Origin: Azolla caroliniana | Taxonomy: Eukaryota > Plantae > Polypodiophyta | Direction: 5' to 3' | NCBI GenBank assembly: GCA_043228905.1 | Contig: JBHGNT010000018.1 | Coordinates: 17,360,001 to 17,424,000, forward strand | Length of the DNA: 64,000 nt | In this document: in pieces, positions 1 to 64,000 of the stretch | Layout of the letters: each line of letters begins with the position of its first letter | Numbering within the stretch: position 1 is the stretch's first letter | Notes under the pieces: model-generated | Seen by the model: only the letters and a program-made list of their open reading frames with translations | The model's database searches: none | What the model was told of the DNA's origin: nothing | Position numbers and translations under genes: made by a program

Positions 1-2218
1 CCTTGCAGCTGAAGCGAGGCTGAACCAACCGAGTCTTCGTTCGGTTGTTAAAATATCGGAATTCTACGTGGACATTCGTCTTGCAATGAGGGCATAATGG
101 TAATGTAGGAAGACCAATCTTGAAAAAGGCGTCCAAAACCTTGAATTGGGTAGTCGTCATTGGTGCGCTCAGCCTCTTCTTCAACCCGCCTTCGGCATTT
201 ACCAGGATCGCAGCCAACTCTGCCTTCATCGCCTCAATCATGGTCGTACCATTTGTCTGCTGCTGCAGCTCTTCAAGTAGAAAATCATCTTGAGCATTAT
301 TCATGGGAGCTTTTGTAGAACCAGCTGCAGCATTACGATCTAATATAAGTTAGAAGGTTATGGAGTCAATTTACCAATGCACTCCCTATTCACATTGTAG
401 TTATGAGCAGAAGCTACTAATTCACCTGCTGATGTCGCTACTGCCTGAGGATATTCCGGACCCCTTTCCATTATTTCATGGTCTTCATCAAGTAGGAGCA
501 GTAATTGCTGCTCCAGATCCTCTGCATATATATCCGAAAATGATGTGATGGGAGGCTCTGTAGAACCAACTGCAGCATCATGATCTATATAATAGTTAGA
601 AGGTTATTTAGTCATTTGCACATATTGATTGACGTTGTACTTATGCGCAGAAGCTACTAATTAACCTGCTGATGTCCGAGGTAGAGGATATTCATAAGTC
701 CAACCAATTCTTTCATGATCTTCATCATCAAGCCCTACCTCCTCTACATAATTGTCAGCAAATAGTCTCATGGGAGCCTCTGTAGAAGCAGCTGCAGTAC
801 TCAATTTAGAAGGTTATGTACTCAATTTATCGATGCATTATATTGACATTGTAGTTATGAGCAAAGCTATTAATTCACCTGCTGATGTCGCTGGGGAAGG
901 ATATTCAGGAATCCCTTCCATTATTTTTTGGTCTTCCTCAAGAAGGAGTAATAATTGCTCCTCCAGATCCTCTGCATACATATCTGAAATTGATTTGATA
1001 GGAGGCACTGTAGAACAAGCTGCAACTTCATGATTTATATAATAGTTAGAAAATGATTAAGTTATTTGCCCATATTGACTGAGATTGTACTTATGCCCAG
1101 AAACTACAAATTCACCTTCTGATGTCTGAGCTGGAGGATATTCAAAATTCCATTCAATTCTTTCATGATCCTCTACATAATTGTCAGCAAATGGTCTGAT
1201 GGGAGCCTCTATAGAACCAGCTGCAGCTTTACGATCTAATATAAGTTAGAAAGTTATGTACTCAATTTATCGATGCATTATATTGACATTGCAGTTATGA
1301 GCAGAAGCTATTAATTCACCTGCTGATGTCGCTGGGGAAGGATATTCAGGAATCCCTTCGATTATTTCTTGGTCTTCCTCAAGAAGGCGTAATAATTGCT
1401 CCTCCAGATCCTCTGCATACATATCTGAAATTGATTTGATAGGAGGCCCTGTAGAACCAGCTCCAGCTTCATAATCTATATACAAGTTAGAAAATGATTT
1501 AGTCATTTGCCCATATTGATTGGCATTGTACTTATGCGCAGAAGCTGCTAATCCACCTGCTGATGTTCGAACTGGAGGATATTCAAAACTCCATTTGATT
1601 CTTTTATGATCTTCATCAAGATCCCGCTCCTGTCCATAATTGTCGGAAAAGGGTCTCATGGGAGGCGCAGTAGAACCAGCTGCAACGTCATGATATAAGT
1701 TAGAAAATGATTTAGGTATTGGGTCTCTGCATATATTAACAGAATGGGAAAGCAGGGGTTTCCTAATTCACCTGCTGATCTCAGAGCTGGTGGATCTTCA
1801 CGACTGTCTTCAATTATGCAGACAGATGTGACGGGAGATTCTGTGGAACCCGCTGCAGCTGTATCATGCATAAACATTTCAGAAACATGTTTACTATTTT
1901 TATTCGCACACATTTATTGATATTGGAAGCTCCTAATGGACCTGCGGATGTCAGAGCTTGAGGTATCTCTTGATTTTCCTGATGTAGGAGCAGGAATTGC
2001 TCCAGCTCATCTGCATATAAGTCCACATTGTCGTGGGACGTTGATGTGACGGGAAGTTCCAAGGAGTCAGCCCTGATTGATTCATCATCTTCTGTTTGGT
2101 GGAGCAATTGAAGCACCAACTGTTGGAAGTCTTCCACTTCCGTCTCATGTAATAGTAATCCTGCGAATTCATCATTAGGAATGATTTGGGTATCTCTGTC
2201 TACGCCAGCAGGAGCCAT
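1..2218 (-). CDS. Repeat-exon Dof-like zinc-finger gene, copy A (3' end runs off the window)
   Basis: Predicted exons 2218-1942, 1858-1772, 1679-1557, 1475-1320, 1235-1116, 1025-879, 791-666, 584-426, 339-<1. Introns are GT..AG and phase 1, and internal exons are multiples of 3. The last exon reads ...CPHCKTNVHVEFRYFNNRTKTRLVQPRFSCK. Some exons need a nearby in-frame alternative AG. Confidence 0.8.
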
Positions 2219-6184: not shown

Positions 6185-6745
6185 TTGAGGAGGGCAAAGC
6201 ACATCCGGAGGGACCTGTCTCCCAACAACATAATCGCAGCTCATGCAACAATTAGATGCCCTCAACATCCTTATAAATATGCAATGGGGAATCTATCATT
6301 GCATGACTATGGTATCAGAAACAGAGCGGTCTCATGGTGGTCACATTATGTGGGTAGCACAATTGAAGTAAAACAAGGATACCGTTTGTTACCTACTCTC
6401 TTTGGTCTTTATATAGATGAGGTGTCACATTACATAGAGAGATTGAGCAATCCAAGAGCATGGCTAGCATATATATCCATACAAATATTACTATATGTTG
6501 ATGATATTGTGTCGATGGATAGATTGATAGCATGTATATCCATACAAATATCTATTGGGGATATTATGTTGTTGACACCCCCGAAAAGACTACAAAGGTA
6601 TCGAAATGCCTTAAAAGTATTTTGTATGGATAAAGATATCTAAATAAAACTAAAGTGATGGTATTTAATGCAACACAAGCATGAGGAACAAGATCAACCC
6701 CATAATTCTTCTTGGGAGAGGAAAAGGTAGCATACGCACAATCCT
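6185..6745 (+). pseudogene. Degenerate LINE reverse transcriptase fragment
   Basis: STIEVKQGYRLLPTLFGLYIDEV...ILLYVDDIV resembles STIGVKQGCPLSPTLFGIYIDE...ILLYADD of the LINE at 17.7-20.3 kb. Confidence 0.75.
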
Positions 6746-9633: not shown

Positions 9634-10420
9634 AAATTAAACAAGGGAAAGACAACTTAGTAGAGATCAAGATCAAGAACTGAACAATACACCGAGAGAG
9701 AGAGAGAGACTCAAAGAAGTAGACAATGTCACTGTATTATTCCTAAAGTTACTACAAAATGACAACACTCACATCATCATCATGACGTGAGGAATGTGTT
9801 TCTTTTGTTTGATGGAATTGGAACATAGTATGTGTTTCCTTTGTTCCATTTGAATTGGTGTGTAGGGTGGGATTGAGTTTGTAGGGTGCCATTGGAGGCC
9901 AATTGCAATGGGCCAAGGACAAGGGGTGCCAACAAAATGTGGAAGGTGCTCAACTGTTCCCCTAGATGAAGGAAAGGGTTGATGTGTCCGTCTAATGGTA
10001 AAAGGAAAAGCAACACATGTGGTTGCAGTAGAAGTTGCCGGGTGGAGTAAACAAGGCCCCTTCCATTGTTGATCTTTTGTCCTACTCAGTGTCTACTTAT
10101 ACAAGCCAAGGGCTCTTTCACTATGTCACCCATTGTGGGTTTTTATTCAATCTCCCTTCCAAGTTTCTACAAGAGAATGGACAAGAGGAGGTAAGAATAC
10201 ACACACCTTTATCATTCCTTTTGCCTCGTGGTGGTCCATCAAGTTTGTCAAGGATTCGTTACGAATGGCAACTTTTGACGAATTATGCATTTCATACTAC
10301 GATTTCCCAATAGACCTTGTCATATTTCGCTACCGTACATACATTAAGAATGTTGTGTAATATTTAGCTCCCGAGAAGGGTTCTATACTTTAGTAAAGTT
10401 AATTACGGAAAGGGGGAGAG
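9634..10420 (-). mobile_element. LTR-like remnant interrupted by the preceding copia
   Basis: Same sequence as 39096-39670, 40705-41590 and 62176-62550. The 39 kb copy begins TGTTGG next to a reverse iMet-type PBS. Confidence 0.5.
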
Positions 10421-16884: not shown

Positions 16885-17714
16885 GTTGGAGAAATTCCTC
16901 GAGCATTGATTTTATCCATATGCCTTCTTTTAGCTGCTAAAGCCGCGACAACACATCCAACTTTGGTGGATGACAATGCTACGGTAGTATGTGTCTTCAA
17001 CTTCCACAAAATTGCATCGCCAGCAACTGTGTAAACATAACCACCTGTTGACTTGCGGTCATCCACATCTACCCCCCAATCAGAGTAACACCAACCAAAT
17101 TGTTGACTGGAGGGGTTTGTCCATCCTTGCACAAGTGTGGTTGACTCAGATTGTGTGGCTGATTAAGTCAATGTATAATGGTGAATATGTTTCAAATATC
17201 GTAGTAATCGCTTGACCGCTATCCAATGCTTTGGTCTTGGATTGGCCATGAAACAAGAAACAAAACCAACGGCAAAACAAATATATGGACGTGTGCATCT
17301 TTCTAGGTATCTTATACATTTATGTATTTGTTTATAAGGCACATCCTTCATTTCGGAAATTTCTCGTTCTATTTTTGGAGAATCATCATTTGAGAGTTTA
17401 CAAGGAGAGGTAAGCGGAGTACTAATGGACTTATTATGGAGCATATCAAACCTTTGGAGAATGGGATTAATATAGTTTGATTGTGATAATGAGATAGTAT
17501 GATTTGTTCCATTTTGAGTTACTTTAATGCCAAGAAAATGTGTCATAGTGCCTAAATTCGTGATATGAAAGGCATATGCAAGTTCCTTCTTTGCAATAGT
17601 TAGATAAGATTTAGAATTAGAGATCAAGTGCAAATCATCGACATAGACACCAATGATAACAAAAATGGATTTGACTTTTCTAATATAGATATTTGGCTCA
17701 TTGTTTTGATGATG

Positions 17715-24494: not shown

Positions 24495-24721
24495 TGTAGA
24501 AATCGGCAACTATACAAATAGAGATTGAGAGAGAGATCACACATACACAAAATTGTTCTATATTAATTGTATATGTTACATTAGCCCAAATGGCTTCTTT
24601 GTAGAGACGATGAACAAAAAGTTATGTCTCTTCAAATGAAGAGTTTTCTCTAAAGTATAATAATAGAAATAACTTTTCGTAATAATAAATAAATATTATA
24701 TTTAGATTAAATATTTCCACA
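24495..24721 (-). repeat. 3' LTR of young copia
   Basis: TGTAGA...TCCACA, 227 bp, adjacent to the PPT. Confidence 0.95.
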
Positions 24722-24745
24722 CCCCCCCTTAAGCTAAATATTATT

Positions 24746-27700
24746 TTATTCAAAAGTATTGTCGTTCGACGAATAGTTTGGCATTGTTAGACCAATCTTT
24801 CGGCAACAAGCGATATGCTTTGTTTGAGGTACTGGCTTTGTTAGAAAATCGGCCCACATTAGTGTTGTGGACGCATACTTCAAATCTAGCTTCTTCTCTT
24901 CGATTAAGTCTCGTAGAAAGTGATGCTTGAAAGAGACATGTCGAATATTATCACTCATTTTTGGATTACAAGCTAACTTGATACATGATTGATTATCACA
25001 ATGAAGGATTAGCTTTGAGGTTTTAAACAAGTTAAGTTCTTCAAGTATGGAATGAATCCATATTCCTTCTTTAGCAGCGAGTGCGGCAGCTACATATTCG
25101 GCTTCCGTTGAAGATAATGCAACCGTTGTTTGCTTCTTAGACCTCCATGCTATAGCGGCTCCGGCGAGACAATATACGAAGCCACTTGTTGACTTACGAC
25201 CATCAACATCCCCCCCCCAATCCGAGTCCGTCCATCCAGATAATTGTGATGGATTGGTCCATCCTTCAAGGTTCATGTTGATGGACTCGGATTGCGATCT
25301 GGAGTAAGTTAACACCATATATTTCGTTCGTTTTAGATAACGTAGTAGTCGTTTTAATGCTTGCCAATGTTTCGGTCCGGGATCCTGCATAAATCTCGAA
25401 AGAATTCCAGCGGTGAAACATAAATCGGGACGTGTACAACTAACAAGGTAGCGTATACATCCAAGAATTTGCTTGTAAGGAACATTGAGCATCTCATCTC
25501 GCTCTTTGATAGTTCGAGGAGCATCTTCGATTGATAATTTGCATGGAGTTGACATGGGTGTCGAGATAGGCTTGCAATGTAGCATGTCAAAACGTTTTAA
25601 TACACTTTCAATGTATTGAGTTTGGGAAAGAGAAATGGTTCCTTTGGCACGATCTCTTTGTAGGTTCATTCCAAGGAAATACTTCATTGGACCAAGGTCA
25701 GTTATTGGAAAAGCTTGTTGAAGTTCCTTCTTCGCAAGTTGTAGATACGCGAGTGAGTTGGCAAGTAGAGGTAAGTCATCGACATAAACACCGATTATGA
25801 TGAAATTATTCTTAGCTCTTTTAATATATACATTTGGTTCATTCTTTAGTCGTTTATATCCATTCTTAGTTAGAAAATTATGAAGTCGATGATACCAAAC
25901 TCGTGGAGATTGTCGTAGACCGTATATAAGGATCGATGTAGGCGACATACAGCATTTGGTTGAGTTGAATCTTCAAAATGTGGTGGTTGTTGCATATAGA
26001 TCTCTTCTTCGAGTTCTCCATGAAGGAAAGCGGTTTGAACATCTAAGTGATGAAGTTCCAAATCAAGTTCGACGGCGAGAGAGACGAATATGCGAAATGT
26101 GATACTTCGCAATGTAGGGCTAAATGTATCTTTGAAGTCGATTCCAGGTATTTGCGAAAAACCACGAGCTACGAGACGAGCTTTGAAACGTATAATATTT
26201 CCAGTAGCATCGGTCTTCTTCCGAAGAACCCACTTACAACTAACAATTTGTCGATCAGGTGGTGGATCGACAAGGCTCCAAGTTTTGTTCTTTAATAAGG
26301 CTGTCATCTCTTCTTCCATGGCTGCTCTCCATTTAGGGCCATCGGTACCAGACAACGCTTCGCGAACGGTAATAATTAATTCATTTGCAGTATCTGGTTC
26401 TTCTTCAACTATGAGAGCGTCCATATCGAGGTCCACAAAGTGTGCCTCGAATTGGTCAAGTTCCTTATAGATATCGGACAAGGAGCGCGTACGACGAGGT
26501 GGTGAGTCGTTATCATATGAGTTTGGATAGTCTTGCGAGGATTGTGATTGTGAGTTAATTGAAACATCACTAGTGATGTCGGGTGAGTGAAGATGAAATG
26601 GCGGAATGATTTGAGAGGTTTGAGGGCTTTCAAGAGTATTTTGAATAGAATTCGAGAAATTAGATAAAGAGATTGGTAAAGTGGTAGATGTATGTAAGCG
26701 TGGTGAAGATAAGGTTGATGTAGAGGATGTGTTTGTGAGGTCATCATAATTTGTAGAGTTAGATGGTGTGAAAACACTATCAAGATGTGGGTTAATATAG
26801 TTAGTTTGTTTAGGTTGGGTATTTCTTTTATATTGGTTGGTTACATTTAAAGATGCATTTTTTATTTTACTTTTATTTTTATTAACTTTAAATTTAAATA
26901 TTGGCTTTTTATGTAGACGGAGTCGAACGGGAGGAGTTCTTGGAGGAGAGGAGATGGGAGGAGATGCAAGGGGTTGATGTGAAGGAGAGATTGGAGGAGG
27001 TGCAAGCGGTGGAGGTAGTGGCTGATCAACGTGAATAAGAGGGCGAGGGATTACCACATAACGATCGACAGCATCGAGGACTTAATCAAAGTGAGAGGCA
27101 ACGTTGATATTGGCGGCTTTTCTTGATCGATTGTTGGCGGCGATAGTAGCGGCATCAACATTCTTCGCTCGATGGCCAGTGGGTATTCTCTTTGAAGGGC
27201 GGCAATTATCATCATCACTGTTGTGTTGGTGGCAAAGGGCGGCATCGACGGCGGTGCTGTTTTGGAGGCGGCGGTCGGCAGCAATAAAGATGTTTTGTTG
27301 GCGGGAGGCGGCGGCGGTAGTGTTGGTTGGGAGGCGGCGGTCGTCAGAACCAGAGATGTTTTCTTGGCGGAAGGAGGCGACGGTGGCGGTGCTGTTTGGG
27401 AGGCGGCGATAGTCTGCAACCGCCATGTCCTTTTGGCGGGAGATGTCGATGGCATCGGTGGCGGCGGCGCTGTTTGGAGGGCAGCAATTATCATCAGCAA
27501 CACTGCTGTTTGGGCGACAAAACGTGGCGGCGGTGGTGGTGGCGGCGACGGCGACGGCGGTGTTTGCAGGGCGGCGAACAGTGGCAGCATCATCTTTTGA
27601 CTGTTCGGCTCCTTCACGAGTATTAATTTTAGGGTTATGCGTTGGTGTCGTGGATTCAAGAAATGGTGACTCATCAAATTTGACGGTACGACTATAAAAG

Positions 27701-30212
27701 AACGTGTTCTTGCTTGGATCGAATAAACGGTAAGCCTTGTAGCAACACTGCTGTTTGGGCGACAAAACGTGGCGGCGGTGGTGGTGGCGGCGACGGCGAC
27801 GGCGGTGTTTGCAGGGCGGCGAACAGTGGCAGCATCATCTTTTGACTGTTCGGCTCCTTCACGAGTATTAATTTTAGGGTTATGCGTTGGTGTCGTGGAT
27901 TCAAGAAATGGTGACTCATCAAATTTGACTGTACGACTATAAAAGAACGTGTTCTTGCTTGGATCGAATAAACGGTAAGCCTTGTAGCCGTTTGCATCTC
28001 CGTACCCAACAAAGATCGCTTTTCTTGCTCGTTGTTCTAACTTGGATCGTTTTTCAGCAGGGACGAAGGCGTATGCAAGGCAACCAAAAATTTTGAGATC
28101 TTGCATATTTGGTTTTACTCAAAACCATAACTCGTATGGTGTGATTAACCCAAGTGTTCGATGATAGTTGCGATTTTGGAGATAGCATGATGTTGCGACG
28201 GCTTCTTCCCAAAATGAGGGTGAAAGTGACGCTAGATTCAACATGCTCCGGGCCGAATTAAGGAGTGTTCGATTCTTGCGTTCGGCTAGACCATTTTGTT
28301 GTGGTGTTGAAGGAACAGAAATTCGTTGTAAAATTCCATGGTCTTTACAAAATTTTGTAAACTTGTTAGATGTATATTCTCCTCCCCCGTCAGATTGTAG
28401 ACATTTCAATTGTAGATTTAGTTGCTTTTCTGTTAGTGATTTGTAATTTGTAAAAGCAATGAACGCTTGGTCTTTGCTTTTGAGAAATGTTAGTATTGTA
28501 AACCTTGTATAATCATCGATGAAACTAATGAAATATTTTGATTTTAAAAGTGATTGAGTTGGGAATGGACCGCATATGTCACTATGGACGAGTTCAAGAG
28601 GTCGACTTCTTCGTGAGTTACTTGTAGGAAACTTTGATGATGCCATTTTGCCGAACAAGCATGCCTCACATAAGTCGATTTTGCAAAACATATCCTTTGG
28701 GACTCCTTGAGCGAGCTTGTGAGTTTGGAGTGTTCGCATAGCAGCAAGGTGTGGATGTCCAAGTCGGTAATGCCAAAGTAGAGTGAGTTCTTGTTGTCTT
28801 TCGATTTCGGTTGTGTGAACTTCGATTGTTGATTGGGTTGTTGGATGTACACTAATGGGATATAACCCTCCTTGTCTTTTGCAAGAAGTTCGTATTGTGA
28901 GACCATTTGGTAGAAGGTGACGAATCACGGCTTGGTTATGATGGAACTCGATGATGGTTCCATTCGAAGTTGCTTGACTTATCGAGAGAAGGTTCTTGGT
29001 GATACCAGGTACGTGGTACACATCATTGATCATGAAGTTTCCTCCTCCGGGGAGATGAAATGTAAGTTGGCCTTTGCCTAATGCTTGTTTTACTCCATTA
29101 TTTCCAAATCTAACAGTTATTGGATTTTGTAGGGGTGTGTACCTTTGAAGCCAATCCGATCGATGTGTAAGATGATTTGTTGCTCCGGTGTCGAGATACC
29201 ATTTGTCGTCCTTCTTTGTTGGTATGTCTGCGACAAGTGCTTCAGCTACGAAAGCTTGCATCAAGTCACTGTAACCTTCTTCTTCATATTCATTCTTTTC
29301 TTCCATCGAGGCGGCATAGACCTCTTCTTCTTCTTCTTCTTCTTCATTTCTCTCTTCCTCAAATTCCTCGACAATGTGCGCTTGTGGTCGGCGAATATTG
29401 CTTGGAAATCTCCGAATCTTTTGTTTTGCCTTACATTCTTGTGGTGTGTGGCCTGGCCTTTTGCAAATGTTGCAATAAGACCTAGTGAACTTCATTCCTC
29501 CTTTCGTCATCGGTGCATTAGTCCATTGACTCTTGAAACTCTTGTATCTTGGTTGTGATTTGAAATGAGGTCGATAGGCTGCCATAGCGATTGCTTGTGT
29601 TGATGTGTTTTCTTCTCTTGTCTTTCTCATCGAGTCTTCTTGCCTTATGTCTCCCATGAGATCTTCCACGGTAGCTTTTTTATTTAAATTTTGTGTAGTC
29701 ACAAAAGATGACCATGAAGAGGGTAAAGCACCTAGTAATAAACATCTTTGTAGTTTGTCAGAAATGTCCAAGCCAGATGTAATTGTATCATCCAGTTTCT
29801 TTTCCCAAGTGGTTAGAAAATTATCTACATCATCTTCTTCTTTCATTGTAAATGTGACATATGCACGTAGTGTGTGCACTTGTGCTGCATCCGTTTGTGG
29901 TTCATATTGTGTCTTTAATTTCTCCCAAATTTGATGCGAAGTTTGTAGCTTTCTGACCGCTTCTCCTTGAACATCTGATATATGTGCTAATAATTCCATT
30001 TTTGCTACAAGATCTTTCTCTTCCCAAATAACTTGATCGGGTCCGGGGGTATTAGGTTTTAGTGATGATCCTGACACTACATTCCAAAGTTTGTAGTGTT
30101 GAAATAATAATTCGAGTCGAGCACTCCAAATGCGATAATTTTGCTTTGATAACTTTACTAATGAAAGTTTATGTGTGTTGAGAATGTTGGCGGGAGATGA
30201 GGATTGTGCCAT
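24746..30212 (-). pseudogene. copia gag-pol polyprotein with disablements
   Basis: CNICKRPGH knuckle, WYLDTGATNH, HSDICG/SDGGGEY/NGLAER integrase, YVDD, RNase H. In-frame stops at 28119 and 27082, a 245-bp duplication, and a frameshift near 25925. Confidence 0.93.
27496..27985. repeat. 245-bp tandem duplication inside copia pol
   Basis: 27496-27740 is repeated at 27741-27985; the peptide YKAYRLFDPSK...FCRPNSSV occurs twice, in different frames. Confidence 0.92.
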
Positions 30213-30316
30213 TTTTATAGAAGAGGGCTATCCGGCTTAGCGCTCGTCTTGATGACAAATCGATCAATGCTCCTAGGATTCTCTAGTCTTATTTGATAGA
30301 TGCGGAAATCTATAAA

Positions 30317-30326
30317 TCTGATACCA
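30317..30326 (-). promoter_or_regulatory. Primer-binding site (tRNA-iMet type)
   Basis: TGGTATCAGA immediately inside the 5' LTR. Confidence 0.85.
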
Positions 30327-30553
30327 TGTAGAAATCGGCAACTATACAAATAGAGATTGAGAGAGAGATCACACATACACAAAATTGTTCTATATTAATT
30401 GTATATGTTACATTAGCCCAAATGGCTTCTTTGTAGAGACGATGAACAAAAAGTTATGTCTCTTCAAATGAAGAGTTTTCTCTAAAGTATAATAATAGAA
30501 ATAACTTTTCGTAATAATAAATAAATATTATATTTAGATTAAATATTTCCACA
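30327..30553 (-). repeat. 5' LTR of young copia
   Basis: Matches 24495-24721. Confidence 0.95.
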
Positions 30554-36284: not shown

Positions 36285-37800
36285 TGTCATGTGTTGGCCG
36301 GTTCGGATGACCAAGTATGAAAAGACTAATAAATGGTTACGGGCTTAACTAAAGACGGGTGGGGCTGAGCGAAGCAGTAAAGAAAGCCGAACTTAAAACG
36401 GAAATAATAATTATTAGTAGCAGTTGTTCATGCTCTGTTCGTAACCACCCATGTTCTGTACAAAAAGGGACATGGAAAGCATGTAAAAACGAGTTGAATA
36501 GTATTGTATCAATTGGATCTTCCATAATAGAAATATGTTACCTCATACACTATGTATTGTGTCATAATTGATCTGTGTGAGTAAAGAAAGCCGAACTTAA
36601 AACGGAAATAATAATAATTAGTAGCAGCTGTTCATGCTCTGTTCGTAACCACCCATGTTCTGTATAAAAAGGGACATGGAAAGCATGTAAAAACGAGTTG
36701 AATAGTATTGTATCAATTGGATCTTCCATAATAGAAATATGTTACCTCATACACTATGTATTGTGTCATAATTGATCTGTGTGAGTAAAGAAAGCCGAAC
36801 TTAAAACGGAAATAATAATAATTAGTAGCAGCTGTTCATGCTCTGTTCGTAACCACCCATGTTCTGTATAAAAAGGGACATGGAAAGCATGTAAAAACGA
36901 GTTGAATAGTATTGTATCAATTGGATCTTCCATAATAGAAATATGTTACCTCATACACTATGTATTGTGTCATAATTGATCTGTGTGAGTAAAGAAAGCC
37001 GAACTTAAAACGGAAATAATAATAATTAGTAGCAGCTGTTCATGCTCTGTTCGTAACCACCCATGTTCTGTATAAAAAGGGACATGGAAAGCATGTAAAA
37101 ACGAGTTGAATAGTATTGTATCAATTGGATCTTCCATAATAGAAATATGTTACCTCATACACTATGTATTGTGTCATAATTGATCTGTGTCAAATCCTAA
37201 TGTTCATGTGTAACGCATTCATAACCATTCGGTTGTACCCAGCTCGTGTTCATCTCCACAGTCACGCAGTCACACATTCTTTGATTCCTACATGGGTTAC
37301 TACTATCATTTTGAAAACGAGACAATCCCATTGTGACTCCCCGAGCACAAGACCTTGAGTCGGATACTAAAGGACAAGTATCCAACACCGTGTTACGTTA
37401 GGCTGGTAGCATCATGATGCCACCCACATAATGATGATGCCTTGTCATGATGACACTCACATGATCCCCCAAAAGGATTTGAACCCACAACCTTGTTCTA
37501 TATAGGTCAAATCCTTAGCCATTGTAATAATATGTTTATATAAATAATATAAATATATAGAATACCATAAGAACATTTTAGTGTACTTTGTATTCTAGAA
37601 TATTCTAGCGTGTTCTATATTCTAGAACCGGCTAGAGTACGCTATATTCGAGAACCTTTGAGAATACCCTATAGGGACATATAAATAAGAATTTATTAAT
37701 CATCGCAAAACCAAATTGGTTCAACACCATTCTAGAGCTCCTTATTTTGCCTACTCTTTGTAATCCGTCTTATAGTGCAATATAATACTTTCCATTCAAT

Positions 37801-46283: not shown

Positions 46284-49200
46284 TGTTATAGACTAGACTG
46301 ATAAAAGACTATTAAGCAAGATCAAAGAGCGATTAGATGTTAATCCAGATCCCTAATCGCATATCAATATAATCTCAAGATAGAGCTCATTGGCTATGAT
46401 GAATGCCTAGTGCAGATGCACTTAATAGGTTATCTTCTATATTGTCAGACAATAAGCCCTCAAGATGCCAAAATGATTAAGATACATGAATTTATGACCC
46501 AAAAGATGATGGGATACATGCTTACTATTTACATCATTACATGCATGAGATAGGTATAACATGACTCATTACATGCATGAGTTCATAATACTCCCCCTCA
46601 TCTCATCATCATTGTTTTAGCTCATCGGCTCTGATAATCTTTTGAGTCCAAGAGAAGGAATGTTCAGCCATTGTTTTGATGCAGGTAAGCTTTTGGTAAA
46701 AATATCCGCGAAGTTCTTGCTTGATGTAATAGGTTGAATGTTGATATAATTATCATTGAGCTCACGAGTAAAGAAAAACTTGAGAGAAATATGTTTGATT
46801 CAATCACCTTTAATGAAGCCCTTCTTGAATTGATTAATGCAAGCATAACTATCTTCATAGATAATTGTTGGTAATGGGGGCCGATAAACCGCAAGAACTT
46901 CCATTATGTCTGATTAAGCATTGTAACAATAGGCATTCTCAACTTGCTTCATGTAATGCCAATATCTCAACATGATTTGAAGGTGTTGCAGCGAATGTTT
47001 GCTTTGTTGATCTCCAAGAGATCGTTGTACCACCAACAAGGAGAACATAACCTATTTGTGATTTGCCAACATGAGAGTCAGATAAGTACCCATTGTTAGA
47101 ATAACCGGTCAATTGACTGTGCATAGAACCATTGGTAAAGAAAAGACCCATATCTTCAGTGCCTTGTAAATATTAGAAAATCAGCTTAATTCCAGTCTAG
47201 TGTCACTTGGTAGGATCGTGACTATACTGAGCCAGCAAATTGACAACGAATGAAATGTCCGGACGCGTACAATTAGCCAAGTACATAAGTGCGCCAACAA
47301 CAACCATTTAAGGGTACTGTGGTCCAAATGCTGACTCGTCAAAAGATCTTGGCTAAAATGGGTTACGAGAAGGGTCCAAAGAGCAAACTACCATAGGAGT
47401 TCTAGTAGAATGAGCTTGATCAATAGAAAACCGTTTTAATATTTTATGGATATAAGAGATCTTATAAGCAAAATGTGGTTAAACCGAGGTCTTTCATTTC
47501 AAATTGTTGTACTTCATCCAAATGTTGTACTTCTGGCTTCGGGGTATAGGCTTCAGTGGTCAACTTTGACAGTGTAGGAAGCGTCAAAGCCTTGTGTATC
47601 GAATTCCCGTTGAAAACACAAGGTTTTCTACTAAACAAACGAACATGGATATCGATAAAAAAAAGCTAATAAATTGCACCTATGTGGGCAATTTTAGGGT
47701 TTATCAACCTAATTATTGCCTATAGTTAAATAATTGGTTTCTTTATCATGCTACTACTAAAATATTTATTCTATTTTAGTGAACCTCGCCAAAAAGTCCC
47801 CGCCTTCAATCTTAAGATCATGTCTCCTGCGAAAAGGGGTTATGATGGCTATCAACAAAGCAAATCCCATAGGCTATTTTTCGAGTTTGGTTTACGTCGA
47901 GGAAGATGGAGTATTATTCCTAATATTTGCAAAGTCCGAAGGAAAGGGAAAAATGGATTTAGTCAAGAGCTTCACATACGGTAGACTTCGGAATGTTGAG
48001 TACGAAGATAATGACTCACCTAATCTCGTCCTTGATGTAGAAAGCTTGAATGGGACTAGACGGGTACTCATTGATGAAGGCAACCTGGTGGCTGAGTGTC
48101 AAAAACCAAAAAGACTAATCAACCACCTAATTGAGTTGTTTTCAAACCCAAATGATTGGGTTTTAGATTTGTTTTCCGGCACAGGTATATAATATAAAAC
48201 TTGTCGCATCAATTTAGATTAATGTATAGTCTATTCTTTAGTTTGATGTTACATGTGCAATTTCATTCTACTGTCAGGTACTACTACAACATGCACCTTA
48301 AAGATGTTCAAGAACTCTGTTGCATTGGAGAAGGACCCTTGATAATGTTAATTTCATCAAAATGAGGATCCAAGGTATCCTAGGACTGTCCAGATCAAGA
48401 CCAAGATGTTGGGGCAAAGAATATCAATGAAACTAAGATGTTCCAGATGACTTCTAGAGAACCTATGGAACCTGTAGTTGAAGAAGCAGGGGACCTTGTT
48501 GAATTAGAAGACGTGTTAGAGTTTGAACACACTAATGATTCTATTGAGCGTACCGACGAAGCCAATGAGGACAATCTTGATGAAGGAGCTAATGCGGAAG
48601 AGCCGGCTTTACCAAACCTATTATTGGATTGAATGCATATGGCTTATTGTAAAATTTGAACAATATGAATTGTTAAATTTTGATGTAATATATAAGTTGA
48701 GCTTATTTATAATTTTCGTGTAACATGCATTGAACTTAGAGATTAAGTATAATTTGTATGTGTACTTGTTGTTTGAAGTCTCCTTTATTATTTGGGGTTT
48801 ATATGAGATAAAATTATACTCTATCATTTGCTCGTATGATTGGAATACTATTGTAGACTGGTTTATTTCTACATTGACGGTGTCATGTATCACGTGTCAA
48901 GGGAATTTTTCTCTCAACATAGTAGTATCTCTTAATTGTCATGTTCACAATTTGCTTTTTAAGAAATATTTTATATAAATATACACACATAATTAAAAGA
49001 AGTCACTTATTCAGTGGGGTATGCTTTTTAGAATATGCACAATGACATGTGTTACTATTATACTTGCGTTGACATCTATACCTTATCTAAGTTTTGGACA
49101 AAAACATGGTAGATAGAATATACGTCAGATGATTTTGTTGTCGTGATATTAGTTAGTTCTATTTTTCGCTATGTTTTCATAAACCACATACGCATGCATC

Positions 49201-53792: not shown

Positions 53793-54856
53793 TCAGGCTC
53801 ATCAGAAACTCAGGGAAATGTGTCCTGGCATCCTTATATGTCTTCATTCTTCCTAGAACGTTCAGCAGATCTGAAGTGTGTCCTTTCTGCATAACATTTA
53901 TGAAAAACGAGTGACTATGATTGTAAACGTCAATGTTAATACGTAACTCAAATGACTATCTTCTTTGTTGCATTTAAAATCTGTCCTACTCAGAAAACCC
54001 TAACCTTCAAGCATTTGTACGCAATGAGAGAGAGAGAGAGAGAGAGAGCCATGGTGTAAATCACATGTCTATATTTCGTTAAGGATTTAGAAGGAGGTTA
54101 TTGACCATCTCTGCTGGTAATACTTGGGTACATTCTGTTTGTCCTCCTGTTTGGTTTAGGTTGTGAGATCATGTCTTTACCGTATGTCTATTGAATATGT
54201 CTATTGCGTGAAACCCCTTTAATAATTGATGGAAAAGAGTGACCTGACTGTTTGAATGATTAGTGAAATAGAACAATATTAGAATCTACATCAAGCGATG
54301 ATTAATTGATTAAATGTGGATGATTAGGGGTTTTGACAAGTTCTGGTATTTGTAAATGTGGATGAATGAGATGTAAGAAAACGAGAAAGAGAATGTTCTA
54401 CTAAAAAAAAGAGAAAAAAAATGGAAAATAAGAAAACGAGTGCATCCCAGCCGTTGATAAAACAAAACATTTCTAGAAAAATAAAAGGACGGCATCCAGC
54501 CCATCGGAGCCGTGCGCCGTCGGATGGACGTCAGGATCCGACAACCCACGATTGCGTACACAAAACGCGAAACTGTCTTCTGCCCTTTTTCCGACAGAAG
54601 AACAGTAGAGACAAAGCATTTCGAACACACACAGAAAGAGAAAGAAGAGAGCCTTTGAACACCATCGCCACCCCTTCATCGAGACGGCCTGAACAGCAGT
54701 TGCCTTGCAGAGTAAGGAGGAACCCACATTCTAAATATATGGAAATGACAAAATTACCTGCAGAATCGTATCAGACTTGTCAATCGTATACTAGTTAGTA
54801 GGGTAGGACATTACCTGCAGAATCGTATCTGATCAATTGTCGATCGTTCTAATAGG

Positions 54857-57039
54857 ATGGCTCCTGCTGGCGTAGACAGAGATACCCAAATCATTCCTAA
54901 TGATGAATTCGCAGGATTACTATTACATGAGACGGAAGTGGAAGACTTCCAACAGTTGGTGCTTCAATTGCTCCACCAAACAGAAGATGATGAATCAATC
55001 AGGGTTGACTCCTTGGAACTTCCCGTCACATCAACGTCCCACGACAATGTGGACATATATGCAGATGAGCTGGAGCAATTCCTGCTCCTGCACCAGGAAA
55101 ATCAAGAGATACCTGAAGCTCTGACATCCGCAGGTCCATTAGGAGCTTCCAATATCAATAAATGTGTGCGAATAAAAATAGTAAACATGTTTCTGAAATG
55201 TTTATGCACGATACAGCTGCAGCGGGTTCCACAGAATCTCCCGTCACATCTGTCTGCATAATTGAAGACAGTCGTGAAGATCCACCAGCTCTGAGATCAG
55301 CAGGTGAATTAGGAAACTCCTGCTTTCCCATTCTGTTAATATATGCAGAGACCCAATACCTAAATCATTTTCTAACTTATATCATGACGTTGCAGCTGGG
55401 CAAATCAATATGGGCAAATGACTAAATCATTTTCTAACTTGTATATAGATTATGAAGCTGGAGCTGGTTCTACAGGGCCTCCTATCACATCAATTTCAGA
55501 TATGTATGCAGGGGATCTGGAGGAGCAATTATTACGCCTTCTTGAGGAAGACCAAGAAATAATCGAAGGGATTCCTGAATATCCTTCCCCAGCGACATCA
55601 GCAGGTGAATTAATAGCTTCTGCTCATAACTGCAATGTCAATATAATGCATCGATAAATTGAGTACATAACTTTCTAACTTATATTAGATCGTAAAGCTG
55701 CAGCTGGTTCTATAGAGGCTCCCATCAGACCATTTGCTGACAATTATGTAGAGGAGGTAGGGCTTAATGAAGATCATGAAAGAATTGAATGGAATTTTGA
55801 ATATCCTCCAGCTCAGACATCAGAAGGTGAATTTGTAGTTTCTGGGCATAAGTACAATCTCAGTCAATATGGGCAAATGACTAAATAATCTTCTAACTAT
55901 TATATAGATCATGATGCTGCAGTTGGTTCTACAGAGCCACCCATCACATCATTTTCGGATATATATGCAGAGGATCTGGAGCAGCAATTACTGCTCCTAC
56001 TTGATGAAGACCATGAAATAATGGAAAGGGGTCCGGAATATCCTCAGGCAGTAGCGACATCAGCAGGTGAATTAGTAGCTTCTGCTCATAACTACAATGT
56101 GAATAGGGAGTGCATTGGTAAATTGACTCCATAACCTTCTAACTTATAATAGATCGTAACGCTGCAGTTGGTTCTACAAAAGCTCCCATGAATAATGCTC
56201 AAGATGATTTTCTACTTGAAGAGCTGCAGCAGCAGACAAATGGCACAACCATGATTGAGGTGATGAAGGCAGAGTTGGCTGCGATCCTGCTAAATGCCGA
56301 AGGCGGGTTGAAGAAGAGGCTGAGCGCACCAATGACGACTACCCAATTCAAGGTGTTGGACGCCTTTTTCAAGATTGGTCTGCCTACATTACCATTATGC
56401 CCTCATTGCAAGACGAATGTCCACGTAGAATTCCGATATTTTAACAACCGAACGAAGACTCGGTTGGTTCAGCCTCGCTTCGGCTGCAAGGTGTGCTTTG
56501 CACCACCCCATTCTCCGGAGAAAGAATGGAACCAGCAAAAGCAGGAGGAGAATGTGAATAATAGGAAGAAGCTCGAGTTTACTCTTCACCAAGAGGAATT
56601 GGAAGTGCTGGTTGGTGCCTGGGGAGGGCTTCACGCGCTGGTGCAACGTTTCTGGTCGATGCCACATGTCATCGAAGTTCTGGAGGCCAACAAATTTATT
56701 CTGTGTAGCAGCCGCCGCCGCAAGTCTGAGAGTCCAACCAATTCATCGCCAAAGAGGAAGAGGAGATCGTGGGAGTCGAAGCAGGTCAATGATGGTGGTA
56801 GTACTGCTGAGAACATGATTGATCATCAGATGCCTCCTATTAGAGATCATCATGATGAGGATATGTTGTGGATGGAATCTTTTAATTCCATCATCGCAGC
56901 AGAGAGGCTAGGTAGTAGTTCTGCTGCCTATAGCCCTAGAAATACTAATCCTAACAATAATGATAGTGATTGGTATCATGATTACTATATGAGTTGCAGC
57001 AACCTGAACAATAACAACATTGCTGCTTTCACTTGGTAA
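54857..57039 (+). CDS. Repeat-exon Dof-like zinc-finger gene, copy C (intact, ~567 aa)
   Basis: Exons 54857-55133, 55217-55303, 55449-55604, 55689-55826, 55908-56066, 56153-57039 join into 1704 nt with no internal stop. C-x2-C-x25-C-x2-C finger at 56398-56496; basic SPKRKRR motif. Confidence 0.85.
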
Positions 57040-58559
57040 CTATCTTCTCAACTACATTAATATAATTACCAAGTTTGCTCACAAAGGGGTTGATCTGCTG
57101 ATGATGTTTGATATCGTTAAATGTTTGATGTTATATATAGATAAAGGTTTGACCTGCTTACTTTTACAATGATCAGTCATTAATTCTTTTCTTATATTTA
57201 TTTTACGGCTACTTGATTGCAGTACATATATACATGATATGATGTGTTCCTTGCAATTCTTTGTTTCTTAATCGCATCCATTACTTCTGTTAAACTCTTC
57301 TTTTCATAACTGATTATCAACTGCATCTTCTTCTTCCAGAAATACGGGTTAGGTTTTTGTTAATTCATTAAAGAAGGCATTTCAGCTAAATATATATGTA
57401 TAACACATTCTATTTGCTCTTGCTCCTGGAAATCTTCAGTTCAGTATAACCCCCCCACAGGTCAAACGACAGACTGAAATGTACAATAATTTTAAACTTT
57501 GAAATTTTCAATGCTTGCAGGAGGATGCAAGGTGTGGTAATGTCTTTACTGTTGATATACAATATGGTAGCCATGGAATTATACAATTACCCTGTATTGT
57601 TAAAGATACAATATGGTAACCTTGCAGTCATAGCATCTGGTGACTCTGGAATATGGAACCACCTCATAACATCTAGCCGTGATTGTTTCACATCCAATAT
57701 GTCTGTTCAAGCTGCAAATACCATACCGCGTATAGTATCCAATATGCTCTGTGTTGTATCTTGAACTTCGCAACCACCATCATATAATTGAGGGAGAGTG
57801 GCTGAGCAAATCCATGAGTCCTGCAGAGATCATGGATGGGGTTGCTGGCCGTGTCAACCATGCCATCTCTACACTTGAAATGCTGATGTTGATTCTTATT
57901 ATTTCAACATCTGGACCAAGCCAGGTGGTGCCCATACAGTATGTGGCTCAAAAGTCTGCCTGATATCATTTCCTTTGCAATGCAGACAGAGCTCACAAGA
58001 ATAGGTCTGTCATAGAAAGAAGAGAAGTGGAGCCACATGAGGAGAAGAAGTAGTAACAGCAGAAGTAGGGGAAAGAAAGAAAAAGTATGCAGGAAAGAAA
58101 GAAGAAGTATGCAAGATTTGGACTGATGATGATGATGATGATGATGGTATGAAATCTGCAGCTGTTTTGATCTGGGGCAGCTCCAACAAGAACCATAGAA
58201 TCCTTCCTTGCTGTTGTGACCTGTGTAGCAACTCCAGCTGAGAATAATTAATTCTAACTGTAAATAAATTAGTTATATGGGCAGCAAGAAGGAGGTGCTG
58301 ATTGCAGCAAGAAGCAATGTATATGATTTTGGAAATCGTAATTTTTAGATTTTCCCTAAGATGGTCTTGTTTTGCTGAAGCCCAAATATCATGGAAGGAT
58401 ATGTATACATATTTGCATGACTCCCTAGAATAAAGTAGGACATTTGGCCTTAGGATTGATGCAACCAGGGACGTGTTCTCAGAAGATATAGCTCCAACAA
58501 TCATTTGTGATCACGTCCATTATGACCGCAAGACATGTAGAATTTGCATTTTATCTTAT

Positions 58560-61500
58560 TTGCGTGAATAAATTACAATCTCATAATCATGTTTATCAAT
58601 AAGGTCATTTGGGTGTGATTTTGAAGAGTGATTTCAACGCAATGGATTAAAGATATCGGAGACTTGAATTGAGTGGAAACAAAATCAACATCATGTGGGA
58701 AGCATTTAAGGTTTACCATAACGTATATTGTGTGGTTAGTGCATATATGGAGCCAACATCTACCATTGATGGATGTTGACATATTGACCCTTTGAGCCCT
58801 TATTGAGGAGGGCAAAGCCCATAGTAAGGGGATTTATTGTTGATTTGTGGATTTCTAAAAAAACCTTGACAATGAGACATGCTCGCAGCTCATGCAACAA
58901 TTAGATGCCCTCAACATCCTTATAAATATGCAATGGGGAATCTATCATTGCATGACTATGGTATCAGAAACAGAGCGGTCTCATGGTGGTCAGATGATGT
59001 GGGTAGCACAATTGAAGTAAAACAAGGATACCGTTTGTTACCTACTCTCTTTGGTCTTTATATAGATGAGGTGTCACATTACATAGAGAGATTGAACAAT
59101 CCAAGAGCATGGCTAGCATATATATCCATACAAATATTACTATATGTTGATGATATTGTGTCGATGGATAGATTGATAGCATGTATATCCATATAAATAT
59201 CTGTTGGGGATATTATGTTGTTGACACCCCCGAAAAGACTACAAAGGTATCGAAATGCCTTAAAAGTATTTTGTATGGATAAAGATATCTAAATAAAACT
59301 AAAGTGATGGTATTTAATGCAACACGAGCATGAGGAACAAGATCAACCCCATAATTCTTCGTGGGTGAGGAAAAGGTAGCATACGCACAATCCTCCAAGC
59401 ACCAAAGAATCCTTCTTGGAAGAGGAAAAGGTGGATCTCCGGACCTGAGTTCTAACGATGAGGTCAGCGAGGCTAAAATGCCTCCGGATGACAATGAAAT
59501 CAAGACCCTCGACGAGAGTCCGATTTCATTTAGGCTAAGTGGACCGAACGAGCGACTGGGTTGGTTTGACCAGTCCAAAGAAGAGTCGGCGAGTAGTGGA
59601 GACTCAGCCGTGCATTCCCTGCGCAGGAAGCCAAGGAGACGGTTTACGCGAAAGGAAAAAGGGAAGAAGAAGATGCTGGAGTACGGCACGGATAAGGGCA
59701 AGTCGGATCGACACAAATCCGACTACGAGAAGAGAGATGACGGACCTTCGAGAGCGAAGTCCACGTCAGCCAAGAAAGCCTCAACATCGGCTAATGAGCA
59801 ATTACGTCGATCTACCCGCCAGAAGAACCTTGTTGTGCGGTTCGAATACAACGAGTACATGGCGCATCACTATGCATACATGACACATGTAGCGGAAGTG
59901 GGTGAGCCGGAGAGCTACGCAGAAGCGGCGAAGGACACAAATTGGCATGCCGCAATGGAGGAAGAGATGCGCGCATTGGCGAAGAATGAAACCTAGGACC
60001 TAGTAGACGCACCGAAGGGTGTGAAGCCGATCGGATGTAGGTGGGTGTACAAGGTCAAGTACAACACTAACGGCTCGATCAACTGATACAAGGCCCGGTT
60101 AGTAGCGAAAGGCTATGCGCAGCAATACGGCATCAACTACGATGAGATGTTTGCGCCAGTCGCAAAGATGACGACCGTCCGTGTTTTGCTTGAGGTAGCT
60201 ACGGCGAAGGGGTGGCACTTACATCAGATGGATGTCAAGAATGCGTTCCTGTAAGGCGAGCTTGAGGAACAGGTGTACATGGTACAACCCCCCGGATTTC
60301 ACTTCGAAATGAACACCTTGGCGGTCTACCGGTTGAAGAAGAACCTTTACGAACTAAAGCAAGCCCCACGTGCTTGGAACAGGAAAATCACTCAGCGATT
60401 GCGTCGGATGGGATTTGCAACGTCCAAATCGAACTCTTCCCTGTTCATTCGGCAAGGTTGACTCGGGCCGGTTAGTATTTTACTTTATGTTGATGACTTG
60501 GTCATCACCGGCGCCGACCTAGGTGAAATTGACCGTGTAAAGCTCCAGCTTGCGGCATCGCTGGACATGAAGGACCTGGGGGACCTTCACTACTTCCTCG
60601 GGATCGAAGTGATCCGTACCCCCAAAGGCATATTGATCAACCAACGACATTACGTGTTGGGTATGCTCTTCAAGTTTGGGATGGCAGATTGTAAGTCAGT
60701 CTCGACTCCTCTAGATAGAACCGTCAAGCTTCGCCCCGACTTTGGAAAGGTTTGCGACCCAACGAGGTTCCTACAGATTGTCGGAAGCCTCATCTACTTG
60801 ACTATCACTCGACCAGACCTCAGTTAGTCGGTCGGTGTGATTAGTCAGTTCATGGTGCGGAAAACTGAGGAGCCCCTACAGTGCGCACAACGCATACTCT
60901 GGTACGTCAGTGGCACAAAGGACGAGGGCCTACTATATCGGACCGATATTGCCGCGCAGTTAGTCAGTTACACCGATGTTGATTGGGCCGGAAACGCCGG
61001 CGATTGGCGATCCACATCCGGATTCGCGTTCTCTCTTGGGAGTGCTGCGATCGCGTGGAGTAGCAAGAAGCAGCCGACAGTTGCATTGTTGAGCACCAAA
61101 GCCGAGTATAGAGGAGCCGTTGTCGCAACATGCGAAGCCATCTGGCTGAAACGGCTACTTAAGGATTTGCGGATGGAGGTGTCCGATCCGACGACGATCT
61201 ATTGCGACAACCTCAGCAACATCCAATTAGCGAAGAACCCTATCTTCCACGCCCAGACTAAGCACATTGAGGTGCACTACCACTTTGTCCACGAGCGTGG
61301 CCTCTCTGGTGAAGTCGAACTTCAGTATGTTCCAATGGCTTGGCAGACTGCCGACATTTTCACCAAGCCTCTTGGTCTTGACAAGTTGTGGCAATTCTCA
61401 GGTGCATTTGGGTTGTGACACCTTGATGTGCTGAACTTGAGGGGGAGAGAAGTCCCGGAAGACCACATAAGGGAGCAGGAAAGGAGCAGAAGAGACCATG

Positions 61501-64000
61501 ACGCCGAGTCGGATGACGAATTCGATTTCGGGTCGGTTGAAGAAGCCGAGGGCGGATCCACGAAAGAGTTCAAAAGCGGACGTGAGGGCAGCAGTCGAAT
61601 GAAAGAGCCGAAGCCAACCAAGCATGGGGGAGATGAAGCTAACTCGAATGAGAGCGAAGACCGATCAGAGGAAGCCGATTCGGTTCGGAGACGCCGAATC
61701 AACCGAGGGCCAAGCGTAAGAAAGGGCAACCGAAGAGGCGCCAACACCGCGACAACAAGGGAGCTGAGAAGTGCTTGAGGGGGAGTGTTGCAATACAAGC
61801 TCAACATTGGCCGGATCGGCTGTGCAAGCTAAGAACCGGATCGGTTGGGACCGATCAGTTAGGCCAAACCGGGTGCACAAACTGGTGCGCAACAAGAAGT
61901 CGGAGCGATGCGTAAACCGCGAGGCCGTTGGAAAGATATTACGCGTAGGAATATATTTTGGAAGTTAGTGTGAAGCTCATTTATGAGCATTGAAGTACGC
62001 GTCAATACTTCTGTTAGTCCATATGGACTTGTATAAAAGTGCTCATTGAGCACATTCTATGTACAAACTGAGTATTATTTTTTGAACAAATTGTGTGTGT
62101 GTGTCCAAGCTCTCCATTAAACCTGTGTTTTCCTACGTTCTGCTTCTGTTGCTTCCGCATGTTGTTCTTTTCACAAAATTAAACAAGGGAAAGACAACTT
62201 AGTAGAGATCAAGATCGAGAATTGAACAATACACCGAGAGAGAGAGAGAGACTCAAAGAAGTAGACAATGTCACTGTATTATTCCTAAAGTTACTACAAA
62301 ATGACAGCACTCACATCATCATCATGACTTGAGGAATGTGTTTCTTTTGTTTGATGGAATTGGAACATAGTATGTGTTTCCTTTGTTCCATTTGAATTGG
62401 TGTGTAGGGTGGGATTGAGTTTGTAGGGTGCCATTGGAGGCCAATTGTGATATTTTGCTACTGTACATACATTAAGAATGTTGTATAATATTTAGCTCCT
62501 GAGAAGGGTTCTATACTTTAGTAAAGTTAGTTACGGAAAGGGGATGAGAGAAATATTGTTGTATTTCCTATTTTTCTGAACAGAACTGACGAAGGAAATA
62601 GAATGTCAATTTGCTAACCTAGGCTTCTGAACATACAATGTAGGGCCATCACAATTATCCTCAATGCTTTGTTCCTGTTTTTATTATTATGAATTATGAA
62701 CAATTTGTAAGTTGGAGTTTGCCATTGCATGCAACAATACAAAGGTGTTAGATTAGAACACAGAATGACCAACCATGAATGGGTACTAATTCGTAACCAT
62801 GCAGGAAAAATGTGGTATTTAACTCACACATTGGTAGACAATGGTGGAAGCCACAATAAATTTGCATTGGAGACATGACCACGATTTTCCTGTGGTAAAA
62901 ATACATTTCAAGCACAACATGCACAATAACTTCCAATGGCGTCGAGTCGTACCTAGTGCTGGCGCGCTCGCTACAAGAGTTGACCCACCACAAGACAGAG
63001 TCTCGACGTAGTGAACAAGATGATGAAATGAGGGTAGCTATGCCTCTTATTTATAGCGATACCCAAGGCCCCCAAGCAAGTTCACACTTGGCCTAATGGG
63101 TTGTCTCAATCCCGAGGATTAAAAGTAATCCTCCCCTTCTTTACGCTCTCGTTTAACCCTCACACTTATCCACATGTATAGAATGCATAGTCTAAGTGAC
63201 ATATTGTATCTAGGATGAAGATTTTAATGGAAGATTGGATCAATGCAACTGAATTGAATAAATTAATATGCTAACATGATCCCATTCCTTCTTATTGATA
63301 GCCCAATGTGATCTACCATACGTGCATTCGCATTCGAGAATGATTCAATGAAACGTGTATGGTAAATCATTTCAAAGTTGGGAAAAAAATAAAGATTGGA
63401 ATTTCAAAAAAATAACTATGGTCTATCTTATATATTGATTGAATAAAAAATTGAAAGTTCAAAACTTAGGAATTACTTAACTACTAAACATTAGAAAGCA
63501 CAAACATAAAAATCAAATAATTCAAAGACATAATTGTATTGATGATGAGCTCATCTTGCAATTATCGATTTTCTCATCTTGCAACTAGTGAAGGTATCAA
63601 TTTCTTCACTTTAGAACTTTACAAAAAAATGAGTATGAACTATAGAGATTGAATAAAAAGATGTCATTATACATTATAATCAAATGTTCAAAAACTCATA
63701 AAACGTATAAGAAAACATGAGGCTAACATAAAAATTTATTATGACATCACACTAAAGAGAGAGAGATAGGGAGAAAATTGGAATTCGAACCCAAGACATA
63801 CATAAGTGATAGTAGCACAACAACTTACCACTAGGGTGAGCTCATCATCAATAACACAAAAGGATAAATAAGAAAAAACAAGAAACACCTAAATTTCCCG
63901 TTTCAAACGTTTGTATGCTTGCATGAACACGTTTATTACTTTATATGGATCTAACCATCTCTCAAAACAAACTTGGAGAAGGTAACAATGTGTGAATTTA
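58560..64000 (+). repeat. Segmental duplication, copy 2 of 5940-11872 (continues past the window end)
   Basis: Collinear with copy 1 up to the last base of the window. Confidence 0.92.
59395..62175 (+). mobile_element. 5'-truncated copia, duplicate of 6746-9633 (3' LTR 61786-62175)
   Basis: Same junctions and several of the same stop codons as the first copy, so it was duplicated with the segment rather than transposed independently. Confidence 0.88.

Follow-up and report, generated by a model that had tools for sequence, protein, structure and literature searches.

The question raised by this locus is whether the short tandem units that precede a zinc-finger reading frame at positions 54857-57039 are spliced and translated exons of one gene, and what kind of protein such exons would build. 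The analysed stretch of 64,000 nucleotides from Azolla caroliniana (the window) was found to be AT-rich, transposon-rich plant DNA with four gene copies, designated A, B, C and D, of which copy C occupies these positions. The features of the window that bear on the question are collected in Table 1.

Table 1. Gene copies in the window and the predicted parts of copy C.
Feature	Position	Strand	Description
Copy A	1..2218	-	9 exons; window edge cuts inside the finger
Copy B	24017..~32950	+	broken; XY dimer present three times, with a period of 460 bp
Copia LTR retrotransposon in copy B	24495..30553	-	LTRs of 227 nt, free of mismatches; target duplication of 5 bp
Copy D	43186..43943		fold-back pair of decayed last-exon fragments, without blocks
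Candidate 5'-UTR intron	54712..54820	+	52 or 109 nt long, depending on the acceptor; donor AG|GTAAGG; putatively spliced
Exon 1	54857..55133	+	starts with ATG; acidic, leucine-rich; final ~145 nt homologous to blocks
Intron 1	55134..55216	+	83 nt, phase 1; GTCCAT donor; acceptor +9 to CAG
Exon 2	55217..55303	+	class W block, 87 nt; in-frame 60-nt deletion
Intron 2	55304..55448	+	145 nt; contains stump of deleted Y block (compared with copy A)
Block X	55449..55688	+	exon 3 (156 nt) and 84-nt intron
Block Y	55689..55907	+	exon 4 (138 nt) and 81-nt intron
Block X'	55908..56152	+	exon 5 (159 nt) and 86-nt intron
Last exon	56153..57039	+	887 nt; initial 37-82 nt homologous to block start
Two predicted helices preceding the finger	56251..56376	+	AlphaFold2 pLDDT 57-80; equivalent segment in fern relatives
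Dof-derived C2-C2 finger	56398..56496	+	CX2CX25CX2C
Distal strand K-L-E-F-T-L	56569..56586	+	aligned to conserved F-motif of fern relatives; probable register
Bipartite NLS-like basic motif	56713..56766	+	pattern match, C-terminal to finger; putative function

Joining the six predicted exons of copy C (277, 87, 156, 138, 159 and 887 nt) gave a protein of 567 aa with one terminal stop, and its five introns (83, 145, 84, 81 and 86 nt) were all in phase 1. The preliminary description had predicted this open frame without internal stop, the phase-1 introns and the make-up from tandem exon-plus-intron units, and these claims stand, with unit periods of 240, 219 and 245 bp. Its intron length of mostly 81-86 nt applies to four of the introns and fails for intron 2, which is longer because most of a Y block that is present in copy A has been deleted. 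Intron 1 departs from the proposed GTGAAT donor and TAG acceptor: its donor is GTCCAT, no AG is found at the usual register, and an in-frame CAG acceptor 9 nt further on is needed. The 5'-UTR donor was found 127-145 nt upstream of the ATG in 9 of the 11 loci examined. No Pfam family was matched at E 0.01 by exon 1, X' and the Y blocks.

Copy A was stop-free up to the window edge, and four of its eight acceptors have moved in frame to CAG. In copy B, exon 2 is split by a Copia element, one of the Y blocks contains a stop, and a 20-nt deletion takes out the first Cys pair of the finger. The Copia element is very young, as its LTRs are identical; the empty site was seen in one contig of sequencing run X1, and the element contains an internal 245-bp tandem duplication (27496-27988). 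The fold-back of copy D, if transcribed, would form a hairpin and could give small RNAs against the family.

Thirteen further related loci (L001-L013) were recovered from metagenome contigs out of 140 candidate stretches, L013 being the D locus (98.8% identity). Complete models from ATG to finger were obtained for six of the seven ATG-bearing loci, coding for 468-619 aa, and the ATG and exon 1 were conserved. Among the copies, the number of blocks ranged from 2 to 7; the low count of L007 could be an assembly collapse, while copies A (seven blocks) and C (four) share one contiguous window. Copies B and D, L009, L011 and L012 (frameshifted last exon) are dead or damaged, and in L002 one block is frameshifted. 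This chimeric frameshifted block, at L002 2168-2330, was also seen in two proteins, P0009 and P0010, where it runs via the start of its own intron directly into the C-terminal tail, so that the finger is deleted in some copies. In L001 (1-1650), a coding exon like that of copy C (95-100%) is followed by a downstream flank like that of copy B (100%), a mosaic reflecting gene conversion, a crossover (recombinant) or a chimeric assembly. An upstream flank of about 500 bp and the 5'-UTR donor are common to the copies, which fits a putative local segmental duplication rather than transposon capture.

Elsewhere in the window, a further LTR-type element occurs twice, at 5935-11872 and 58553-64000, with 88-98% identity between the copies, a LINE-type reverse transcriptase ORF at 17624-19825, and a 204-bp tandem array with 99% matches at 36376-37190. 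A decayed fragment of an N6/N4 DNA methyltransferase was found at 47761-48330 (+), with a match to PF01555 of 35.2 bits (cut-off 26.7) and a weak match to MboIIA; its SAM-binding motif is apparently split by a GT-AG intron and resumes in another frame. Marchantia and bdelloid rotifers are known to have amino-methyltransferases of bacterial type, and intact copies elsewhere in the genome may merit a look.

Splicing and translation of the blocks were assessed over the window and the 13 loci. The length was a multiple of three in 57 of 58 internal exons, as against 35 of 68 introns, and a stop interrupted the predicted frame in 3 of the 58 exons, compared with 52 and 58 for the other two frames. 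If retained, 65 of the 68 introns would introduce a stop or a frame shift. GT donors were present in 66 of 68 introns and an AG acceptor at the expected register in 50, with an in-frame AG 9-27 nt further on (+9, +15, +27) in 17 of the other 18; these counts come from donor and acceptor matrices trained on the window's own sites, with two spurious donors and one stump acceptor removed manually and one degenerate acceptor missed in copy A, which leaves one exon and one intron uncounted. The in-frame AGs at +9, +15 and +27 of each block would allow the acceptor to slide once the first AG mutates. A newly formed T-rich tract precedes the last acceptor of L010 and L012, which has moved 27 nt downstream while staying in frame. 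The GC content was 0.45 in exons and 0.31 in introns, and a branch-like yTRAy was present in 31 of 44 distinct introns.

As many units are near-identical copies, the weight rests on tree-aware tests, in which changes were counted between nearest-neighbour units only. Indels were multiples of three in 11 of 12 cases in exons versus 7 of 41 in introns (Fisher p 4e-6, with the frameshifted L002 exon included here and left out of the stop test), and their frequency per 100 substitutions was 2.0 in exons versus 12.3 in introns, i.e., about six times higher in the latter. In 51 in-frame exons, 2 distinct stop sites were observed versus 15-25 expected; once B, L009 and L011 were set aside, the remaining 39 exons, among them those of L012 despite the frameshift in its last exon, showed none versus 10-19 expected (P at most 4e-5). 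Five and 22 contigs of run X1, 80-95% alike, spanned intron and Copia sequence, and run X2 yielded no contigs; no joint at any predicted splice site was found in the X1 contigs, and, as X1 behaves like DNA of a related plant, this result is neutral. The patterns of stops, indels and splice sites constitute strong indirect evidence that the blocks are spliced and translated, and on this evidence we consider it very probable that they are. The multi-copy, spliced and translated family predicted earlier is, at the sequence level, borne out by the indel, stop and omega tests.

Where two alternating module types had been proposed, four block classes were found instead, namely X (including X'), Y, W and Z. 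Each formed a clade across loci (support of 97 for X plus X', 100 for Y, 98 for W and 100 for Z; 48 distinct units); since the classes group across loci, they are older than the gene copies. Their order is fixed among copies whose last exons share 81-89% identity. The end of exon 1 (~145 nt) aligned to a whole Z block with a score of 116, compared with a maximum of 28 in 300 shuffles, and the start of the last exon (37-82 nt) aligned to the starts of the Y and X blocks with scores of 54 and 52, compared with shuffle maxima of 28 and 30. Because both ends align to blocks, a block has the structure of a last-exon start fused to an exon 1 end, which is the expected product of unequal crossing-over around a single phase-1 intron. 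From these alignments, the array probably arose in an ancestor with one phase-1 coding intron, by unequal crossing-over between similar stretches flanking that intron, and further crossovers, later of XY dimers (460 bp), would have altered the block number. Gain, loss or skipping of any block preserves the frame, because every block is symmetric (phase 1-1). Two other candidate remnants, a fused block in the first half of exon 1 and an intron plus block upstream of the ATG, were not supported, their scores lying below the shuffled maxima.

The finger had been described as Dof-like. The Dof profile PF02701 matched copy C with E 3.9e-5 and 24.1 bits, below the cut-off of 26.6, over profile positions 6-34 of 59. 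This cut-off was passed by two of three close relatives and four of nine fern relatives, and 11 of 12 matched only to position 33-35 of 59. The CX2C...CX2C pattern, whose cysteines are the predicted ligands, was present in copy C and in nine other intact last exons, with a spacer of 25 residues between the Cys pairs. In the available text of PMC9477738, Dof is defined by CX2CX21CX2C, i.e., a spacer of 21, and mutations of R170, Y171 and W172 of CDF2 weaken or abolish DNA binding, for which K166 is also needed. The K166 equivalent is retained in copy C, and R-Y-W is replaced by A-P-P in the collinear register or by L-E-F in a displaced register. For the latter, the strand lies 24 residues later and aligns to the conserved F-motif of the relatives, suggesting the distal strand K-L-E-F-T-L as a stand-in for the R-Y-W-T stretch of Dof.

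The best PDB sequence match was CDF1 (PDB 8XUF), with E 0.1 and 0.0038. AlphaFold2 modelled the finger domain with a pLDDT of 68 and the whole last exon with 38. In a fold search, CDF1 ranked first of 48,161 chains (Z 2.9, rmsd 3.1, 44 aligned), a weak match tied with unrelated entries, and Foldseek returned no match at E 0.001. Shared with CDF1 and CDF2 are the C2-C2 cysteines and the core with F-x-Y-x-N-N and Q-P-R-x-x-C-K. In contrast to Dof, extra helices precede the finger, which lies in the C-terminal half behind 3-8 coding introns, whereas tobacco CDF genes are given one intron in the available text of PMC13161181. Because the spacer is 25 instead of 21 residues and the equivalents of R, Y and W are absent, the protein falls outside the Dof family as defined. 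The homologous core and the profile match support the earlier term Dof-like, whereas the spacer and the missing R-Y-W speak against a canonical domain; judged by its core, the finger is of Dof ancestry, remodelled, and Dof-like by ancestry only.

A profile search against 1.84 billion representatives yielded 19 proteins, of which 11 belong to the family and 8 are distant relatives; the named distant relatives were all annotated as hypothetical protein of Ceratopteris (KAH7278441, KAH7276318, KAH7439326) or Adiantum (MCO5614854, GOP47_0006642, L7F22_007257), and these results contained neither a canonical Dof nor any named protein from a seed plant or moss, which makes a fern the likely source of the DNA. 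Across 11 aligned proteins of the Azolla family and the fern relatives, 16 columns were invariant. Common to all are the 25-residue spacer, V-x-F-R-Y-F-N-N-x-x-K, Q-P-R, helices ahead of the finger and the distal F-motif. The fern relatives differ in their fourth ligand, which is C or H at +5/+6 and not part of CX2C, and no similarity was seen outside the domain. None of 14 matched the block profile or the activation-domain rule given below. Weak negatives were returned by a search for a longer spliced relative (none in 1841 candidates of 523-2000 aa) and for an acidic-block protein among 10 profile-search hits, and the ESM Atlas gave no usable match for P0001. The lineage-specificity proposed earlier for the family does not extend to the finger, which is found with the same alterations in proteins of Ceratopteris and Adiantum without acidic blocks; on the shared columns it falls within a wider, as yet unnamed class of Dof-derived fingers in ferns. 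P0019-P0024, P0026, P0027 and P0039-P0043 (Ceratopteris, Adiantum and other assemblies) also fall into this wider class, one conserved subfamily of which (520-540 aa) additionally carries a cluster of Cys at the N-terminus and a conserved motif at the C-terminus.

For the finger, omega was 0.17-0.19 (p about 5e-8), rising to 0.32-0.36 in the following helix region and 0.9-1.3 in the C-terminal tail, with 0.41-0.47 for the whole last exon. These values were determined from ten intact copies (L009, L011 and L012 excluded), which represent about four independent lineages because six of them (L002, L004-L008) are 96-99% identical. The omega values indicate purifying selection on the finger.

The arm before the finger contains 22-25% D+E and has a net charge of -45 to -83, and the exon number varies from 4 to 9 among copies, in agreement with the expandable acidic region that the preliminary description had placed there. 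According to an activation-domain rule given in the available text of PMC10550315 (39-aa tile, charge at most -9, W+F+Y+L at least 7), which has a precision of 18-32% on human factors, 26 of 529 tiles qualified, in copy C at aa 7-89 and 216-273; these regions correspond to exon 1 and X' only, and not to the X and Y blocks. As far as the available text of PMC13004512 shows, activation domains conserve their character without conserving sequence. Taken together with the NLS-like motif behind the finger, these features point to a nuclear transcriptional activator with non-canonical targeting, composed of an acidic block arm and a Dof-derived finger, a proposal for which our confidence is evenly balanced. 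The acidic, leucine-rich arm would recruit coactivators, for which charge and hydrophobic residues would be needed and not one exact order of residues; tethering to chromatin would fall to the finger and its extra helices, via a new DNA motif or a partner protein, and the canonical AAAG reading would not be used. Block gain or loss would then likely change the activating strength.

Selection on the blocks bears on whether the arm does any work at all. Block omega was 0.77-0.78 (p 0.03) and, without the broken loci, 0.82-0.84 (p 0.2-0.3); pairwise pN/pS was 0.94-1.19. Substitutions per column were nearly equal in exons (0.079) and introns (0.097), so that the proposed comparison of exon and intron decay was mixed, the substitution rate giving no separation and the frame-specific purging of indels and stops a clear one. 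It is conceivable, if rather unlikely, that the blocks are spliced and translated yet tolerated filler, added by recombination and harmless through their symmetric phase, with exon 1 and the last exon doing the work and selection only keeping the path from ATG to finger open. An omega of about 0.8, pN/pS near 1 and the similar substitution rates of exons and introns agree with filler kept merely in frame, which would give the same picture; so do the tolerance of 2-7 blocks and of a 60-nt deletion, and the fern relatives without blocks. Less easily accommodated is the two-fold excess of D<->E swaps in blocks (32 versus 15 expected; p about 1e-4, 11 change classes tested) together with a D+E content per block of 0.23 +/- 0.03, although acidic-to-other changes were not depleted (47 versus 46-49 expected). 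Against filler speak also three central leucine columns, where 34, 32 and 32 of 34 blocks have L, and the persistence of the four classes in fixed order among the diverged copies. From these patterns, the blocks appear to be constrained in frame, probably in charge and hardly in sequence.

A more far-reaching version of the activator, which we regard as unlikely, is a plant counterpart of the primate Olduvai arrays, a fern regulator acting as a dial, with activation modules each encoded by a single symmetric exon, its strength set by exon skipping within transcripts and by unequal crossing-over among the copies, and a finger that reads a new motif. That the Azolla finger would, in such a dial, be the most canonical-looking member of the fern class is equally doubtful.

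Dof-domain proteins also bind partner proteins. A non-DNA-binding antagonist or adaptor, in which the finger would bind proteins only (e.g., canonical Dofs or their partners) and dampen transcription, the acidic arm being a DNA-mimicking decoy or a chaperone-like tail, would account for the lost R/Y/W equivalents, the strongly negative arm and two LxLxL matches. We consider it improbable, since the K166 equivalent, the basic F-R-Y-F-N-N and Q-P-R are invariant in 11 of 11 aligned proteins, which fits a kept nucleic-acid surface, and since the leucine runs sit in an acidic context that conforms to the activation rule. Finally, that the units are not spliced but a non-coding tandem repeat before a single-exon gene with its ATG inside the last exon, or decaying debris, agrees with gene callers giving just the last-exon ORF (P0001-P0008), with no longer protein having been found and with a transposon-rich setting with many dead copies, and is very unlikely given the frame-specific purging of stops and indels in blocks, the conserved GT, in-frame AG, ATG and exon 1, the finger omega of 0.17 and the first internal Met, which is Leu in 7 loci.

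Several known systems resemble the proposed activator family in part. According to the accounts available, Olduvai (DUF1220) arrays of primate NBPF genes are alike in the lineage-specific, open-ended addition of tandem exon-plus-intron units, in unit classes of fixed order, in a higher-order repeat and in gene duplication on top. The available text of bioRxiv 10.1101/2021.07.06.450945 describes Olduvai units as doublets of exons that are gained in triplets and cleaved by furin, whereas here single symmetric exons, XY dimers and a terminal zinc finger were found; the likeness is one of logic, not of sequence. Acidic activation domains, as presented in the available texts of PMC10550315 and PMC13004512, share the acidic and leucine/aromatic composition, but in Azolla each candidate module is its own duplicable exon.

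OsDes1, an 'atypical Dof' of rice, is also Dof-derived, outside the family definition and a reported activator; in the available text of PMC11343033, it has 132 aa and no C2-C2 domain, whereas in the Azolla family a remodelled finger is retained. Introns can likewise be gained by tandem genomic duplication within a gene, as given in the available texts of PMC3265369 and PMC4974935; here, in contrast, an existing intron was probably copied with its flanks, giving a new exon and intron together, repeatedly. A literature search on Dof in ferns and Azolla, atypical Dof and plant symmetric-exon duplication found neither the family nor the wider fern class, subscription journals and supplements being outside its scope; the wider class may be entered as Dof in the transcription factor tables that accompany fern genome papers. 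Both exon-cassette arrays and divergent zinc fingers have precedents, so that the family is not a new category.

The family would provide a clear natural example of the joint birth of exons and introns through repeated crossing-over, with selection in the block array acting on frame and charge and not on residues. Since its copies have 2 to 7 blocks, the relation of activation-module number to strength is directly testable. The finger places the family in a Dof-derived class of ferns that lies at the Pfam cut-off and is labelled hypothetical, and which surveys demanding the full domain, such as that of PMC13161181 as far as its available text describes it, would filter out.
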